Of a DNA stretch of 64,000 bases, positions 2,847-13,057 are shown one piece after another (position 1 is the stretch's first letter; each line of letters opens with the position of its first letter). The position numbers were made by a program, and so were the translations under genes. The notes under the pieces were generated by a model. The model had not been told where the DNA came from and ran no database searches. It saw nothing but the letters and a program-made list of their open reading frames with translations. The DNA is taken from positions 1-64,000 of the IMG/VR virus record IMGVR_UViG_3300033121_001789. One strand, given 5' to 3'. This DNA comes from a virus (lineage: Duplodnaviria > Caudoviricetes).

Positions 2847-3704
2847 TTAAAAATTTTCTCCATATTTCTCATACATTTTTATCCATTTTCGAATAGCATT
2901 ATCAGAAACATTATAAATTTTACCTGTTCCGACAAATCCATAATTTTTGATTTCTTCCAATAGTTGATTATACGGAGGTCTATTTGATTTTCTTTGCCTT
3001 TTTTGTGAGTTTATCTCCGAAATAGAAAATCCAAAATTTTGTTCCTTTTCTTTTTCGGTATTTATATCTCCTTTCTTTTTTCTATTTTTTAGTAGACCCT
3101 TATAACCTCTACAATGTGTCTCCAAAGAAGCATTACAATTCGGGCACAAAATTCTTAAATTTTCTATTCTATTATCTTTTGATATACCATTTATATGATC
3201 TAATATTAGAGATATTTTTTCACCTCTCCAATTTTCTGTTTGACCACATTTCTCACATATTTTTTGTTTTAAATTGTATTTATATAATTTTTCTTTCAAA
3301 TAATTACTTCCTATTATTGATCCATCAACCAACCAATATGATAATGGCTTTTCAACTTGATTATTATTTCGATTATTTTTCCATGGATCAAAATGTGAAA
3401 AATCTATATTACTTCTTTCGATAAATTTCTTTAAAACCTTATAAGACTTTCCAGATATTGATTTATTTAATTTTCTAAATACCTCAGCAAATGAAAAAGA
3501 ATTTTTCACAACATCATTTATCAAAGTAATATTGTAATATAAACTATCACTATCTACAATTAATCCTAGATTTTTAGCTTTTTTGTGTATAGATCCTCTT
3601 GTATGATTTGGCAACAAAGGTAATACATATTTAATCCCCCTATAATAATTATTGTTAAGTATGTCTATCTCACATTTTAGCCATTTGTTTCTACTTTTAG
3701 TCAT
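2847..3704 (-). CDS. HNH homing endonuclease next to the tRNA cluster
   Basis: CEKCG...LILDHINGISKDNRIENLRILCPNCNA; C-terminal HTH-like VSDNAIRKW. Confidence 0.9.
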   Translation of the reverse strand: MTKSRNKWLKCEIDILNNNYYRGIKYVLPLLPNHTRGSIHKKAKNLGLIVDSDSLYYNITLINDVVKNSFSFAEVFRKLNKSISGKSYKVLKKFIERSNIDFSHFDPWKNNRNNNQVEKPLSYWLVDGSIIGSNYLKEKLYKYNLKQKICEKCGQTENWRGEKISLILDHINGISKDNRIENLRILCPNCNASLETHCRGYKGLLKNRKKKGDINTEKEKEQNFGFSISEINSQKRQRKSNRPPYNQLLEEIKNYGFVGTGKIYNVSDNAIRKWIKMYEKYGENF

Positions 3705-4640: not shown

Positions 4641-4735
4641 TAGCGGGAGATGGATTCGAACCATCGACCTCAAGGTTATTTCTTCCTGATTTAATCAAAA
4701 ACGAGCCTTGCGAGCTGCCTCTGCTCTATCCCGCA
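4641..4735 (-). tRNA. initiator-type tRNA-Met(CAT) interrupted by a 23-nt insertion in the anticodon
   Basis: TGCGGGA/TCCCGCT (1:72 mismatch); CAAGG-CTC[GTTTTTGATTAAATCAGGAAGAA]ATAA-CCTTG; intact D and T arms. Confidence 0.75.
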
Positions 4736-4752
4736 ATATTTCTTTGTATTTC

Positions 4753-5476: not shown

Positions 5477-5609
5477 CAAGGTTAAAAATAAAGCCAAGTG
5501 AGTTTAGGAAAAAAATAGAAGAAAAAATTCAAAAATTAGAAAATGCCATAGAAAAAATTGATTATGGTGTTTCTGATGAAGATAATTTAGGAAAAAGACT
5601 ACTTTCAAA

Positions 5610-5954
5610 ATGATAAGGATTATTGAAGATCAACAAGAAGAAATTAAACCAGCAGATATTTCACAAACAGAAAAAGAAATGTTATTAGCAAAGTATGGGT
5701 ATAAAAATACATTACCTGAATCAGATGTACAAAATAGTACATCTAACCTAACATTTGAAGAAATGTGTAGACTTGAAGAAAATAAATTAAAATCTGAACA
5801 ATATGAGAGAAATAAAAAAATGTATGGTCCAAAGCCAATAACATTTGACAATTCAAATTATTACTCAAATGAAAATTATGAGACTAGTGATGGGGTAACT
5901 TTCAAAGTTTCAATAGTAAGTGATATGCCATTACCACCCAATGAAAACTATTAA
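5610..5954 (+). CDS. hypothetical protein
   Basis: ORF track; overlaps the start of the next gene. Confidence 0.7.
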   Translation: MIRIIEDQQEEIKPADISQTEKEMLLAKYGYKNTLPESDVQNSTSNLTFEEMCRLEENKLKSEQYERNKKMYGPKPITFDNSNYYSNENYETSDGVTFKVSIVSDMPLPPNENY

Positions 5955-6796: not shown

Positions 6797-7269
6797 GGCA
6801 AGTGTCGTATATCCTTCTTAGGTGATTTAGTTTTCCCATTATGGCTCCAAAGTCTAGCAAATGGTGTTGTAAAATAATCATTGTAGATTAATGTGTCATC
6901 CAAATGTAAATTTATTCCATTTTCCTTACAATAATTTGCTTTTACCTTATCCCACGCATCACCTTCAAATTTTTTTTGAATCACCCCATCTGGAAACTGA
7001 ACTTCACCAATTATTGGTGTCTTATTTTCTATTAAAAAATCATATACAGAAAATCCATGAGTCCATTTGATTTTTAATTTATCAAGTTGTGCTTCCAATT
7101 CATCATTCCAGCTACCTCCTGTTATTATATGCACCTCACCACCAGCTTTAATTATAGCATTACTTAGGAAAGAAAATGATTCTGGTAAAGCATCTATAAC
7201 ACCATGAACATCCAATCCAATTTTAAATTTTGAATCTGTTGTCGTTATATTTGAAAATTTATTTATCAT
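6793..7269 (-). CDS. HAD-superfamily hydrolase-like protein
   Basis: IGLDVHGVID motif I-like; IITG; K...LHLDD motif IV. Confidence 0.65.
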   Translation of the reverse strand: MINKFSNITTTDSKFKIGLDVHGVIDALPESFSFLSNAIIKAGGEVHIITGGSWNDELEAQLDKLKIKWTHGFSVYDFLIENKTPIIGEVQFPDGVIQKKFEGDAWDKVKANYCKENGINLHLDDTLIYNDYFTTPFARLWSHNGKTKSPKKDIRHLP

Positions 7270-7774: not shown

Positions 7775-8392
7775 TTATTCTCCAAAAGTTTTAATATAAA
7801 CATCCTCAATTGCCTTAATGCCATCCGATGTTATTTCTCTTGTTCCGACTCCAGCAAAGTTTTGAGTCTCTATTTTAGGAGTATCTTTCAACTCTAAAAA
7901 TGACATAGTAGAATAAGACCATCTAAACCATTTGAGTTTAGTTTGATCAAAAACATAGACATCTTTTTGATTATTAATTCCCATCATACAACAATATCCA
8001 GTCCCACCATCAACAGTTTGAATTTTTGATTTTGAATAATATCCCCTATTAGACTTTTTACCCGGATCAACAATATTACCAATTGCAAATATTTGATTAG
8101 AATACTTAACCTGTGCCCAATTTCTTGCTAAAAAATTCATATACTTATTAATTCCAAATCTATCCATGTGTTTATTGGCTTTGTTAACCTCCACCACACC
8201 TTCTTTAAAATCATCATCACTTATTTCAACCTTATTTGGAGAATTATGAAAATTTGTTTTATAAGAATAGGCTCTTGTTTTTACACCAAATTTTTCACCC
8301 AATTTCTCCCAAACTGTATCTGATCCAACCGCACCACCAGAATGACAAATTATATTTTGCAGGTCAATAGTTATATTAAATATATCAATCAT
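7775..8392 (-). CDS. SLOG/DprA-like Rossmannoid protein
   Basis: CHSGGAVGSD, ARN, GGTG and FAGVGTR motifs. Confidence 0.6.
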   Translation of the reverse strand: MIDIFNITIDLQNIICHSGGAVGSDTVWEKLGEKFGVKTRAYSYKTNFHNSPNKVEISDDDFKEGVVEVNKANKHMDRFGINKYMNFLARNWAQVKYSNQIFAIGNIVDPGKKSNRGYYSKSKIQTVDGGTGYCCMMGINNQKDVYVFDQTKLKWFRWSYSTMSFLELKDTPKIETQNFAGVGTREITSDGIKAIEDVYIKTFGE

Positions 8393-8972: not shown

Positions 8973-9829
8973 ATCGAATATTTTAAACCATCAACAACCC
9001 AAATACCTAATTTTCCATCGTTTCTAAAATATAGATCTCGAATGTCTAATTTTTCCTTTGTGATATACTGCTTTAATTTCAAATAGAATAACTGACCATT
9101 AACAGATACCATTTCTTTATAAAGGATGTTTCCATTTATATCATAAATACTATCAATTCGAAAATCTTCAATTCTTTCAACTGAAAATAATTTTATTCTA
9201 AACTTAGATTGATCAATAATGTTATATACATCTTTGATATCATCAAAGGAATTAAATTTTATAATAACCTCATCATTTTTAACGCATTCAATATTATAAT
9301 TATCATCCAACATTCGAACAACTTCTTGAATAATATTTCTCTGTATCTTTTGTTGTTTTTTAGCGTTAATATTACCAAATATAAATTGTCTTAGATATTT
9401 AGAATGAAGGAAAATCTTTGGTAAATTAAATTTATTAAGAAGATCTACATAAGAATCTCCCAATTCATTTAACTGGTCATATTTCTTAATAGAAGTCCAA
9501 TTTGCACTACGAATATCAATAGATAAGTATTTACAATCATCATTATACTTATATGAGTTATTTGTTGGTAAATCTAATAAATTATTATCATAACAAAATT
9601 CTACATAAGCATTGGTAGATTTAATAAAATCTATTATTTCGTTTGTTTTTTTTACCTTATACTCAAGAAAATTATCTATATCTTTATCAGCCTCCTCAAA
9701 TAAACTAACTAATTCTTGAATATTTTTATACTTTTCTGTCTTAGACAATTGATCGATATAATAATCAAAATGATCCCGAACAGGAATATTCAAATCAAAA
9801 AGTTTTGTAAAATCTTTGTTATTTTTCAT
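8969..9829 (-). CDS. hypothetical protein with polymerase-palm-like motifs
   Basis: YLSIDIRSANW (motif A-like) and VKNDEVII (motif C-like). Confidence 0.45.
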   Translation of the reverse strand: MKNNKDFTKLFDLNIPVRDHFDYYIDQLSKTEKYKNIQELVSLFEEADKDIDNFLEYKVKKTNEIIDFIKSTNAYVEFCYDNNLLDLPTNNSYKYNDDCKYLSIDIRSANWTSIKKYDQLNELGDSYVDLLNKFNLPKIFLHSKYLRQFIFGNINAKKQQKIQRNIIQEVVRMLDDNYNIECVKNDEVIIKFNSFDDIKDVYNIIDQSKFRIKLFSVERIEDFRIDSIYDINGNILYKEMVSVNGQLFYLKLKQYITKEKLDIRDLYFRNDGKLGIWVVDGLKYSI

Positions 9830-9983
9830 CTATAATACTATTAATTCTTGAGTCTCTAATTTTTATAACTATATCATTAATATCATCAGGAATACTATTT
9901 TTCAATTCATCCAATACATTATTTCTAATAGAAAATTGCACCAATTCTACTAGCAAATTTTGCTCAAATTCATCATAATCCAT
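9819..9983 (-). CDS. 54-aa protein with the shared C-terminal motif (not in ORF track)
   Basis: MDYDEFEQNLL...KIRDSRINSIIDEK*. Confidence 0.65.
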   Translation of the reverse strand: MDYDEFEQNLLVELVQFSIRNNVLDELKNSIPDDINDIVIKIRDSRINSIIDEK

Positions 9984-10056
9984 TAGGTCCATCTATCTTT
10001 TTGTTTTTTTCTTCTATGAAACCCAGTATTGTTTTTTCTATCTCCTTTTGAAAAAA

Positions 10057-10263
10057 TTAAACCATCCATCTTAGAAAAAACAGATTTAATAAATATTGAT
10101 GTGCATCTCCAATTATAACCTTATCGTTTGGAAATTGGTTTGTATAAACCTTTGCAATATGTTCATTGTATTCTACTGCGGTAATTTCGTAATCATCACC
10201 CCATAACTTTCTATTACCACCAATTCCAGCGTATAGATTTAATATTTTCTTTTCCTCGCTCAT
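10057..10263 (-). pseudogene. truncated C5-cytosine DNA methyltransferase
   Basis: KILNLYAGIGGNRKLW...AVE...GDAHQYLL, then ends before the PC catalytic motif. Confidence 0.75.
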
Positions 10264-10324
10264 TTTAATAAAAATTTTGTTTTGTGTTTCAATTCAAGTT
10301 TATCGTTTAATCAACCGTGCCAGC

Positions 10325-10423
10325 GTATAACAGCGGGTTTGTGCTATTTGCCCCATTAAGTTTGTCGTTAAATTGAAGCATTGTGCAAGGGGCAAACAGA
10401 CACAAAGCCGCAAAACGTTATCG
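10325..10423 (+). repeat. attC-like recombination site 1
   Basis: GTATAAC...GCGGGTTTGTGCTATTTGCCCC / GGGGCAAACAGACACAAAGCCGC...GTTATCG imperfect hairpin. Confidence 0.75.
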
Positions 10424-11116
10424 GCAAGCGTAAGACGACCACTGCACAGCCATAGCCTTTGCAATTCCCTCAAATGTCTTACTTCTAATTTTGGAAACTT
10501 CCTTTAAATTGCCTTTGCCTTGCTTTAGAGTTTCAGCATACCAAGATGAAACTACCTTCCCTAAATTTGCTCTTTTATTATCAGGTTCTACAATGTTTGT
10601 AGGCTCTAATTTTGGCAATCCTTTTAACCATAAGCAAGTCTTTTTATTTACACTATGCCCATATTCATAAGGTTTTATTATTTGGTCAGGTTTTCGCCAT
10701 CCAGTGTTTAAATATCCAACAGGATTTTCTATTGCAATCAATGGGCAATCGTTATTGTAAATCATTTGAGCAAATTCCATTGCTTCATCTCTTAATCTTA
10801 ATCGGTTTGCCCTATATTCATCAGTAGCACCTTTTCGTGTCAAATTACACATACCTGCATTAGTCAAATAAGTGCAAGGGGGGAAGGCAATTATCATATC
10901 CCACTTTAGCTTTAGTAATTCAGTTACATCGTGCTGTAAATGCCATTCAGGGTGTCCACCACTTTCAGGTAATAAATCACAGCTAAATGCTTCGTGTCCT
11001 AATTTGCGTAATTCCTTTGTAACCGCTTGACTTTCCTCACAAGCAACAAGCACTCGGAGAACGCCAGCCGATAACACGGGTTTGGCAAAATGGCTGTTTA
11101 GTTCTTCTATCAACAT
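10418..11116 (-). CDS. phage-type DNA cytosine methyltransferase
   Basis: VLVACEESQ, FSCDL, IAFPPCTYL (PC motif), IENPVG, KKTCLWLKGLP, RSKTFEGIA.AMA.QW. Confidence 0.8.
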   Translation of the reverse strand: MLIEELNSHFAKPVLSAGVLRVLVACEESQAVTKELRKLGHEAFSCDLLPESGGHPEWHLQHDVTELLKLKWDMIIAFPPCTYLTNAGMCNLTRKGATDEYRANRLRLRDEAMEFAQMIYNNDCPLIAIENPVGYLNTGWRKPDQIIKPYEYGHSVNKKTCLWLKGLPKLEPTNIVEPDNKRANLGKVVSSWYAETLKQGKGNLKEVSKIRSKTFEGIAKAMAVQWSSYACR

Positions 11117-11187
11117 TTGTTCTTAATTTTAAAGTTTAGTAATTCTATTTATCTTCGGGTTCAGCCACTTCGCCAAGCCCGAAACCG
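10418..11187 (+). mobile_element. integron-like gene cassette carrying an antisense-oriented methyltransferase gene
   Basis: Left boundary G|TTATCGGC (10417-10425) is the exact reverse complement of GCCGATAAC (11067-11075), which opens the cassette's own attC-like site; visibly higher GC than flanks. Confidence 0.75.
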
Positions 11188-11193
11188 TTAGCA
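11069..11193 (+). repeat. attC-like recombination site 2
   Basis: CGATAAC-ACGGGTTTGGCAAAATGGCTG ... CAGCCACTTCGCCAAGCCCG-AAACC-GTTAGCA. Confidence 0.8.
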
Positions 11194-11199
11194 GTAATA

Positions 11200-11970
11200 C
11201 TACATTCCATCTCCGAATGAAGTTATTATGTTAAATTCTTTTTCTTTTCTTTTTTCTTCCACCCTCTTTAAAGAAATATTAAAATAATCCATATTATTCT
11301 CAATTCCGATAAAGTTTCGGTTTGTGTTTATACAAGCAATTCCTGTGGTGCAACTTCCAAAAGTATTATCCAACACTATGTCATTTTCGTTACTATATCC
11401 GTTTACAATCCATTCCAAAAGTTCAACAGGTTTTTGAGTTGGGTGTAATTGGTCTTGCCTTCTCCATTTTTGAGCAAAGTTTAATATCGTGTTTGGGTGT
11501 CTTTTACCATCAACACTACCATACAAATAATTGTCTTTTGCACCATACTCCATATTGTTTACCCCCTTTTTACTATTTCTTTTGTATGGTGTTCCTTCTA
11601 CCATTTGTGGTTTGTAGTATGATGCACTCTTACCAAAAACTAAAATCAGTTCGTGCTTTTTAAGTGGCATATATTTAGCAGTTAATGGGCTTCCACATTT
11701 GCTTTTCGCCCAAACCATTTCATACCTAAATAGTTTTTCATTGCTCAATGCTAATTTAAAAGCAAACATTCCAACACCAAATAAAAGTATGTTTCCTTTT
11801 TTTGCTAAAATTCGTTGATATTGTTCCCAAAGTTCATCAAGTGGTATCAGGCAATCCCATTTATTTGCTGTAATGCCAAAAGGTAAATCCGCACAAATAA
11901 GATTAATACTTTTATCAGGTATCAATTTCATTTGGTCTATTGTATCTCCGTATCTTAAATCTATTGTCAT
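11200..11970 (-). CDS. N4/N6 DNA methyltransferase (beta class)
   Basis: ADLPFG (DPPY-like), HPTQKPVELL, VLDNTFGSCTTG, FIGIE. Confidence 0.9.
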   Translation of the reverse strand: MTIDLRYGDTIDQMKLIPDKSINLICADLPFGITANKWDCLIPLDELWEQYQRILAKKGNILLFGVGMFAFKLALSNEKLFRYEMVWAKSKCGSPLTAKYMPLKKHELILVFGKSASYYKPQMVEGTPYKRNSKKGVNNMEYGAKDNYLYGSVDGKRHPNTILNFAQKWRRQDQLHPTQKPVELLEWIVNGYSNENDIVLDNTFGSCTTGIACINTNRNFIGIENNMDYFNISLKRVEEKRKEKEFNIITSFGDGM

Positions 11971-12472
11971 AATTTTATTTTAATATTTTCCCAATATTTT
12001 TTCAATCCAAATAGAAAAAATATTTGGCTTTTTATCAATATTAAGTAAGTAATCTAATTTACTTGCACCGGATTCGGTTAATTTACCAGTGTTTTTTTCC
12101 GAAAAAATCGATTGCAACCTATCATAAGGTTTTAATTTTAAATCTTCATTTTCCATTTTCTACAATTTTTAAAAATATAGTTATTAATTCAGCTCTTTGA
12201 TCCTTAGTCAAGTTTGTGTTACAAAAGAAATACTCCAACTTTATTAGTATTTTTTCATCTATTTTATCAGCCAATAAAGAAGCCTCGGTGATATATTTAC
12301 GCATTAAATCTTAATTTAAGTATATTCTTTAATATTAAACATTCTTCATATTTCTCGTTATCTTGAAAGTATTTAAGTAAAAATTCAACAAAATCTTTGC
12401 GATATGGTTTCATATTATCATCAAAATAAAAGCCAGAAACAAGCCTATTGTATGCTATTTCCATAGAATTCA

Positions 12473-13057
12473 TTAGTTCTGATTCTTTTGATATTGTTCT
12501 AAAAATTTTTTCTCATCCTCGTCTAGATTGTTGATACCAACCTCACCAATTCTATCTAGAATATCATCTATTGTGAATGTTTTAGGAGGATCAACTGGAA
12601 AAGCTGGAGGAAATTCAATTCCTGGGTTTATTCTTGATACTGTTTTCCTATCAATAATATTTCCAAATATTTTTACACAATCTCTAATCTCTGTTGAGAA
12701 TTGATTTTCTAATTTTGAGCATATATTTTTAATAATGTTTTTGTCTGCATAATGTGAACCATAAATACATTCATTTTTCTTAAATAATGAAACATCCTTT
12801 TTATCAAAAAAGAATACCATATCAATAACACCAGATGTCAATGTTGTAATCCTAAATGAGATATTATCATTAAATCTTCCTAAGAAGAAAACAGATCTTG
12901 TCCCGATAAGACTTTCTATTTCCAAATAAATATTATTATGTTCATCCCGGATTTTTTGTATCTCTTTTTCAGCTTTCCATTTAGATAATTTTGTAAAAAT
13001 CAAAAGACCAAATAGAATTCCTGATAAAAACGATATAATTGATAAAATTATTAACAT
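12473..13057 (-). CDS. membrane-anchored protein with DUF6576-like C-terminus
   Basis: N-terminal hydrophobic helix; IDDILDRIGEVGINNLDEDEKKFL. Confidence 0.7.
   Translation of the reverse strand: MLIILSIISFLSGILFGLLIFTKLSKWKAEKEIQKIRDEHNNIYLEIESLIGTRSVFFLGRFNDNISFRITTLTSGVIDMVFFFDKKDVSLFKKNECIYGSHYADKNIIKNICSKLENQFSTEIRDCVKIFGNIIDRKTVSRINPGIEFPPAFPVDPPKTFTIDDILDRIGEVGINNLDEDEKKFLEQYQKNQN

Follow-up and report, generated by a model that had tools for sequence, protein, structure and literature searches.

How a bacteriophage comes to carry DNA methyltransferase genes parted by imperfect hairpins, and whether such an arrangement marks a mobile array of gene cassettes, is the question raised by the island at positions 10057-11993 of a 64,000-nucleotide stretch of viral DNA (Caudoviricetes; IMG/VR record IMGVR_UViG_3300033121_001789), hereafter the window. 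The initial annotation read this region as an integron-like attC array of three methyltransferase genes, captured through a host or phage integron integrase. We conclude that an unrelated large AT-rich phage here holds a truncated fragment of a hairpin-bounded cassette array, and that the island is probably a decayed piece of an integron-like array of a type specific to Bacteroidota. The cassette boundaries are indeed of the recombination type, but the sites are not canonical attC sites served by the integron integrase IntI, the genes are inverted within their cassettes, and what is left is a remnant rather than a working array.

Both hairpins placed by the initial annotation at 10325-10423 and 11069-11193 are present, and their limits were set to 10328-10420 (hairpin 1, HP1) and 11072-11190 (hairpin 2, HP2). 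They start with TAAC and finish with GTTA on either strand, and on the minus strand, which holds all genes near the island, they follow a single architecture of TAAC-G, a 4-nt bulge, a 4-bp stem, a 1x1 mismatch (C/A in HP2), a long stem, a loop, and T-GTTA. The loop of HP2 contains the leader and the ATG of the middle gene, gene 2. A crude scan of the contig for TAAC...GTTA recovered HP1 only, because G·T pairs hide HP2, and an Rfam search at E ≤ 10 over 9000-13000 returned nothing relevant. Folding energy alone (z = -3.5 for HP1 and -1.25 for HP2) is weak evidence, whereas membership in a family of sites is strong. In a blastn search against phage genomes, hairpins 85-92% identical to these occurred in two genera of Baltic Flavobacterium phages, Muminvirus and Lillamyvirus, which carry varying numbers of methyltransferase genes between conserved flanks. 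HP1 is 85-90% identical to hairpins preceding phrog_757 methyltransferases in the two genera (blastn), and HP2 is 91.6% identical to a hairpin of the mumin and filifjonk phages whose flanking genes both differ from those in the window. In mumin phages the 3' arm of the HP2-type hairpin is read in another frame by the downstream gene, which indicates that HP2 is conserved at the nucleic-acid level.

The family was described with two covariance models, R1, built from 17 instances of phage sites, and R2, built solely from sites of bacterial chromosomal arrays. Paired cells made up 86.4% of the R1 alignment, with 14 pairs showing compensatory changes, and 95.2% of the R2 alignment, with 15 covarying pairs; none of 500 shuffles reached the observed pairing, covariation score or compensatory-cell count, and slid controls were only 35-54% paired. 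The sites, 45-217 nt in length, have 22 conserved pairs with covariation, and in the consensus of 114 distinct sites each box is flanked on its outer side by five variable bases, with semi-conserved GTATTG and CAGTAC beyond them. Three conserved G·T wobbles mark the strand: one lies beside the TAAC box in 17/17 phage and 36/36 bacterial sequences, and a second occurs in 35/36. The spacer is asymmetric (5x1), with G and the 4-nt bulge facing a single T. Since the G·T positions would be C/A mismatches on the complementary strand, one strand is marked as the folding strand.

With R1, HP1 and HP2 were the only sites on the window's contig, while Muminvirus and Lillamyvirus phages had about 10 sites per 8-kb early region (at least 10 in each Muminvirus) and 40 IMG/VR loci yielded 107 sites, all of them on the gene-sense strand. 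The sites bound gene cassettes in Flavobacterium, Polaribacter and uncultured phages. The R2 scores for HP1 and HP2 (Table 1) come from loci L006 and L007, which hold the same bases as the window. Polaribacter phage P12002L (L005) has short-loop variants of 47-59 nt between its methyltransferase genes, at 4703-4751, 5604-5650 and 6918-6976; R1 misses them and R2 detects one, weakly, so that model-based site counts are lower bounds. High candidate counts at first look had raised the possibility of dispersed repeats resembling repetitive extragenic palindromes, which was rejected as the scored matches lay mostly in co-oriented arrays with few scattered singles. A half-site reading of some phage junctions was likewise abandoned, these junctions being full hairpins with the 3' arm inside the next gene. 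Several open reading frames (ORFs) annotated in GenBank as 'hypothetical protein' cross sites (L002 2321-2425, L001 2733-2837, L003 2711-2845 and L004 3052-3159), and such small genes of Muminvirus and Lillamyvirus are probably spurious.

The ends of the middle unit are complementary to each other. As claimed in the initial annotation, GTTATCGGC (10417-10425) is the exact reverse complement of GCCGATAAC (11067-11075). The flanks of the two cassette ends, TCGGCTGGC (11071-11063) and GCTTGCCGA (10429-10421), pair through five Watson-Crick pairs, a T/T mismatch, a G·T wobble and two further Watson-Crick pairs. More generally, when the 7 nt that follow GTT in one site were set against the 7 nt that precede AAC in the site after it, unit ends in phage arrays paired at 5.67 of 7 positions and 47% were perfect, compared with 3.95 (3% perfect) for the hairpin in situ and 3.86 (2% perfect) for random pairing; in bacterial arrays the corresponding means were 5.98, 3.99 and 4.07 of 7. 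The fourth base of the R-box also covaries with its unit partner (GTTG...CAAC). The outer bases are thus complementary across the gene unit and not across the hairpin as it stands in the array, which is the classical signature of an integron cassette, and the initial annotation's use of the complementarity as a mark of an excisable cassette turned out to reflect a general rule. Its statement that the two outer units have no partner sites also held.

Homology breakpoints point to the same unit. Of the homology ends in an all-against-all map, 45 of 124 on the left and 22 of 122 on the right fell within 12 nt of the sense-strand 5' TAAC, where about 1% was expected by chance, and none fell at GTTA. 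Shuffled alleles of the kind that the initial annotation had proposed to look for do exist: at least 16 viral contigs share HP2 and gene 2 at 78-93% nucleotide identity and have different neighbours. This shared homology starts at or at most 18 nt from 11190 (exactly at 11190 in 15 alignment rows) and ends at 10406-10417. Taken together, the breakpoints at the 5' TAAC and the shared limits define the cassette as a hairpin body together with the gene that follows on the sense strand. The converse model pairs the hairpin with the upstream gene, following the integron convention on the sense strand; it was rejected by the comparison of mumin and filifjonk phages and by the breakpoint map. We infer that cassettes are exchanged site-specifically at a crossover between A and C of TAAC, written TAA/C. 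Gene 2 stops at TAA (10420-10418), the same three bases that begin the next R-box, and the cassette end therefore coincides exactly with the stop codon. HP2 with gene 2 (770 bp) is the only complete cassette in the window and could still be movable; gene 3 is without its site and the third gene is cut off.

The same sites are widespread in bacterial chromosomes: within one Flavobacteriales family 24 of 27 genomes had them, as did 56 of 121 genomes in an even sample of Bacteroidota, and they formed long co-oriented arrays. The sites of one such array, in G029:C4, extend from 16.6 kb to at least 70 kb; its cassettes measure 546-3265 bp and encode, among others, a PIN toxin, a MarR-like regulator, an AAA_15/21 ATPase with DUF4276 and unknown proteins. 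In G029:C4:14000-74000 (L061-L063) at least 50 co-oriented sites were counted, many of a long-loop subtype with bodies of about 197-201 nt. When phage cassette proteins were compared with the sampled bacterial loci, matches were found only in L067 and L068, and none in the large G029 chromosomal array. The polarity of the genes differs between the two settings. In phages, the site precedes the gene on the sense strand (in the window and at 107/107 phage sites), and the hairpin can supply the start codon. In the chromosomal arrays, ORFs lie antisense rather than sense to the folding strand by 32 to 12 overall and by 24 to 3 in G029:C4, so that the gene comes first and its site second, as in integrons, and the phage cassettes are the inverted ones.

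A tyrosine recombinase accompanies the bacterial arrays. The best match to the integron-integrase model in each of five genomes was a tyrosine recombinase of 350-470 aa, whose 3' end abuts the contig end in four of the five; in L055 it is followed by three cassettes with their sites. The array end and strand predicted from these five held in four of five further genomes, among them G041:C12, where the recombinase gene starts 745 nt past the last listed site. Beside the sampled part of the G029:C4 array no recombinase was found. Homologues 40-46% identical to the bacterial one are encoded on three viral contigs (L013 4110-4892, L029 10544-11290 and L030 5012-5758), in each case just past the last cassette and on the same strand as the cassette genes. 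The bacterial enzyme is likewise co-oriented with its cassettes. It passed the XerA-type profile NF040815 (234 bits) and scored 206 bits with TIGR02249, under the cut-off of 265, and it aligns with VchIntIA (2a3v) in two pieces, without residues 174-242, the IntI-specific segment. Judged by profile scores and alignment, the array-linked recombinase is Xer-like and not IntI. The proposal that cassettes were captured through a host or phage integron integrase thus survives in part, in that hosts and some phages do encode an associated tyrosine recombinase, but one that is Xer-like and lacks the IntI-specific insertion. As the initial annotation had noted for the window, no integrase was visible, and no tyrosine recombinase was found in the whole 109,852-bp contig.

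These observations suggest the following mechanism. Each cassette is bounded by a structured hairpin site whose folding strand reads N5-TAAC-G, 4-nt bulge, variable stem and loop, T-GTTA-N5. A Xer-type tyrosine recombinase, and not IntI, may cut the folded single strand at TAA/C, by which cassettes would be exchanged, excised or inserted. The recombinase gene heads the array in bacterial chromosomes, where each gene is followed by its site, while phage genes are inverted within the cassette, which places the site before the gene and a translation start in the loop. The phage arrays are rich in DNA methyltransferases, and such cassettes presumably serve as anti-restriction cargo. With no recombinase on the contig, any further movement in the window's phage would depend on one supplied by the host or by a co-infecting phage.

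Several observations weigh against this interpretation or narrow it. The case rests wholly on comparative sequence, and recombination was not observed. The HP2 body alone (11190 to about 11064) is 92-95% identical before other genes, with homology stopping at GTTA (L040, L043, L044, L046-L048), and the bodies of hairpins contain many ends of homology. It follows that homologous exchange, or else a second crossover, also plays a part, and site bodies are exchanged or homogenised, a situation resembling that of chromosomal integrons with uniform attC sites. The linkage of hairpins to the downstream gene, 26 to 2, is inflated by the way in which the loci were collected, and falls to about 4 to 2 outside the gene cluster of the query. 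Both outer borders of the island fall away from sites, which implies that its arrival or decay involved other recombination. The window's contig has no recombinase, though CheckV puts its completeness at only 20%. Finally, the only experimentally tested member of the family, the P12002L_attC1 site, failed to recombine with IntI1 (PMC9892861); this failure argues only against IntI1.

The alternative that fares best, although we regard it as unlikely, is that the hairpins are RNA-level or regulatory elements, such as insulators, processing sites or terminators that present a start codon in the loop, and that the genes are shuffled by homologous recombination between them. A precedent exists in the PeSL (promoter/stem-loop) cassettes of T4-type phages, where short conserved stem-loops between genes border small accessory genes and probably bring about modular shuffling; these elements bear promoters and probably act by homologous recombination. 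PeSL elements are not known to have AAC/GTT boxes, complementarity of unit ends or a dedicated tyrosine recombinase. Every phage hairpin does lie in sense orientation on the transcribed strand, immediately behind the upstream stop codon, and has an A-rich leader and ATG in its loop; both the homology ends within hairpin bodies and the bodies common to unrelated genes would suit such an origin. However, the strand-specific fold that is sense to the genes in phages is antisense to them in the chromosomal arrays, so that it is not tied to mRNA and its conserved role lies at the DNA level. Homologous recombination also leaves the complementarity of unit ends and the pile-up of breakpoints at TAAC unexplained, and regulatory RNA elements would not account for a tyrosine recombinase at a fixed array end and strand.

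That the hairpins are canonical attC sites on which a classical host integron integrase (IntI) acts appears very improbable. An attC site is an imperfect inverted repeat of 57-141 nt in which R''...AAC pairs with GTT...R', with inner L boxes and a variable centre; its central spacer is unpaired on both arms, and extrahelical bases distinguish the bottom strand. In an integron cassette the ORF precedes its own attC and runs in the direction of the top strand. HP1 (93 nt) and HP2 (119 nt) resemble attC in their boxed imperfect inverted repeats and in having a single crossover box with complementary ends, and the family as a whole shares with it the AAC/GTT boxes and the variable length. The two-arm unpaired spacer and the extrahelical bases are absent, their places being taken by the asymmetric 5x1 spacer and the G·T wobbles, and the gene-then-site order is found in the chromosomal arrays but neither in the window nor at the phage sites. 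No IntI-type recombinase with the additional domain was found beside the array, either on the 110-kb contig or among the array-linked enzymes, of which the recombinase described above scored below the IntI cut-off and lacks residues 174-242 of VchIntIA. A cluster of attC sites lacking an integrase (CALIN) comprises at least two sites within a few kb and no integrase nearby; the two sites here, 770 bp apart on a contig with no recombinase, form one by the family's own model only.

Published work bears on this point from both sides. Integrons have been reported in Bacteroidota (PMC8618304), and Qi et al. 2023 (PMC9892861) described an attC cluster with no integrase and with two methyltransferases in the virulent Polaribacter phage P12002L. 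The P12002L_attC1 site belongs to the window's hairpin family, and HattCI thus called one family member an attC. That call was made by HattCI only and not by HattCI together with Infernal, and the site was the sole one of six with no verified attC x attI1 junction with IntI1 (PMC9892861). In the same study, a screen of 10,705 phage genomes identified 21 phages with integron parts, among which there was no Flavobacterium or Cellulophaga phage, despite the ten or more sites present in every Muminvirus. Published attC tools thus appear to miss the hairpin family. The CALIN of P12002L resembles the island in having a site between methyltransferase genes of a virulent Flavobacteriia phage that lacks an integrase, but the paper treats the site as a canonical attC on the gene-sense strand, and the hairpin family, its polarity, the Xer-like recombinase and the spread in Bacteroidota are not described there.

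It is scarcely credible that the two palindromes arose by chance or are inert leftovers that never had, and do not now have, a function here: HP2 has an ordinary folding energy, only two copies lie on the 110-kb contig and the island is truncated on both sides, but the independently trained R2 recognizes HP2 and HP1 with E-values of 1.8e-25 and 4e-14, both keep all conserved features, and the 770-bp cassette with intact complementary ends is common to many contigs with exact limits. A lack of past function is already contradicted by these observations, although the sites may be inactive in this phage at present.

Returning to the integron-like array of Bacteroidota, its closest counterparts are the sedentary chromosomal integrons, such as the Vibrio cholerae superintegron. 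Both consist of co-oriented single-gene cassettes (about 0.55-3.3 kb here, with a median near 860 bp) and of structured imperfect-hairpin sites with AAC/GTT boxes, a variable loop, one crossover box and one preferred folding strand; in both, joined cassette ends rebuild a perfect site and a tyrosine recombinase stands at the array head. Cargo of the toxin and defence type is also shared, being represented in the host arrays here by PIN and by AAA_15/21 with DUF4276. The present system differs from integrons in that its recombinase is Xer-like, without the IntI insertion, and co-oriented with the cassettes, that its site has the 5x1 asymmetric spacer and conserved G·T wobbles, and that phage genes are inverted in the cassette and start in the loop. 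A second comparable system is rAID-1 of Bacteroidales, with a 5' XerD-like recombinase, co-oriented low-GC genes and integron-like intergenic repeats (Ross et al. 2019, bioRxiv 10.1101/471110). The bacterial arrays L055 and G041:C12, which carry the hairpins, have the same gene layout, whereas the window, which has no recombinase, does not show it. The cargo of rAID-1 consists of immunity genes against the type VI secretion system in gut Bacteroidales, and phage arrays and inverted cassettes were not reported for it.

We therefore lean towards a broader view, held with somewhat less assurance than the reading of the island itself, that a second kind of integron, independent of IntI and made up of a Xer-like recombinase and strand-marked hairpins, is common to Bacteroidota and their virulent phages. 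Hosts would store defence, toxin and immunity cassettes in it, while phages, with flipped polarity and a translation start supplied by the site, would collect anti-restriction methyltransferases; rAID-1 and the CALIN of P12002L would be two glimpses of this system. If the mechanism holds, gene-cassette capture is not confined to IntI integrons: close to half of the Bacteroidota species sampled, together with their lytic phages, would achieve it through a Xer-type enzyme and its own class of folded sites. It would explain the swapping of methyltransferases by virulent Flavobacteriia phages, among which the methyltransferase content of Muminvirus has been linked to plating efficiency with no mention of the sites (Nilsson et al., PMC7077304). 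It would also offer a mechanism for the assembly of rAID clusters, which a recent preprint called an open question (PMC12247911), and would mean that current integron finders overlook the cassettes of a whole phylum. The window's own addition is a modest one, namely that such array fragments also land, and decay, in unrelated large phages.

The features of the island are collected in Table 1. The island has a GC content of 34.7%, compared with about 27% on either flank, and lies in a large AT-rich phage contig with 28.4% GC overall. A search for relatives of this phage with a flanking 286-aa ORF found none.

Table 1. Coordinates and supporting evidence for the features of the methyltransferase island (window positions)
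Feature	Start	End	Strand	Basis
Whole methyltransferase island, hairpin-bounded array fragment	10057	11993	-	composition; right limit is the end of mymlan6-1 homology; left limit lies within the truncated gene
C5 cytosine methyltransferase N-terminal stub, 68 aa	10057	10263	-	phrog_363 E 7.6e-07, profile positions 51-108 of 327
Leader between HP1 and the stub gene	10264	10327	-	blastn
Hairpin HP1, 93 nt, HP2-like architecture	10328	10420	-	fold z = -3.5; R2 60.8 bits, E 4e-14
Complete cassette, 770 bp: HP2 body, then gene 2, ending TAA	10418	11187	-	box positions, breakpoints, shared limits
Gene 2, phrog_757 DNA methyltransferase, 232 aa as called	10418	11116	-	phrog_757 E 1e-63, alignment from residue 21
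Hairpin HP2, 119 nt	11072	11190	-	fold; R1 113 bits; R2 106.5 bits, E 1.8e-25
R-box TAAC (plus strand GTTA), putative crossover TAA/C, upstream limit of the cassette	11187	11190	-	homology starts; family breakpoint peak
Gene 3, N6/N4 DNA methyltransferase, 256 aa	11200	11970	-	PF01555 E 6.5e-30

Two of the three methyltransferase genes named in the initial annotation are whole, and the third is a mere stub. Gene 3 is 82-86% identical at the nucleotide level to gp007 of Flavobacterium phage mymlan6-1 (blastn), which has both cassette flanks, GTTAGCAGTA...TACTGCTAAC. The window's copy retains the 3' cassette flank GTATTACTGC before TAAC and is missing its own upstream hairpin, and the homology between the island and mymlan6-1 stops at 11993. 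Polaribacter phage P12002L gp35 has about 70% nucleotide identity to gene 3. Relatives of gene 2 are annotated as cytosine methyltransferases. Its ATG at 11116-11114 falls within the HP2 loop, so that residues 1-19 are encoded by the loop and the 3' arm, and relatives without HP2 align only from residue ~20. The start of gene 2 is uncertain within 11051-11116, the candidates being the loop ATG at 11116, an in-frame GTG at codon 14 (within the GTTA box) and a GTG at codon 22. Pfam gave no match for gene 2 or for the 68-aa ORF, both of which were assigned with PHROGs. The C5 stub holds motif I (LYAGIGG) and lacks about 220 residues, and a search in every frame found no continuation. Part of the leader behind HP1 (10287-10327) is homologous to the leader behind the HP1-type hairpin of Flavobacterium phages, and a small ORF in the HP1 loop is spurious. 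Most of the remaining large ORFs nearby have no family match. A few kb from the island, the minus strand of the window encodes an HNH endonuclease at 2847-3704 (phrog_10822, E 3.6e-40) and a DprA-like recombination-mediator protein at 7775-8392 (phrog_768).

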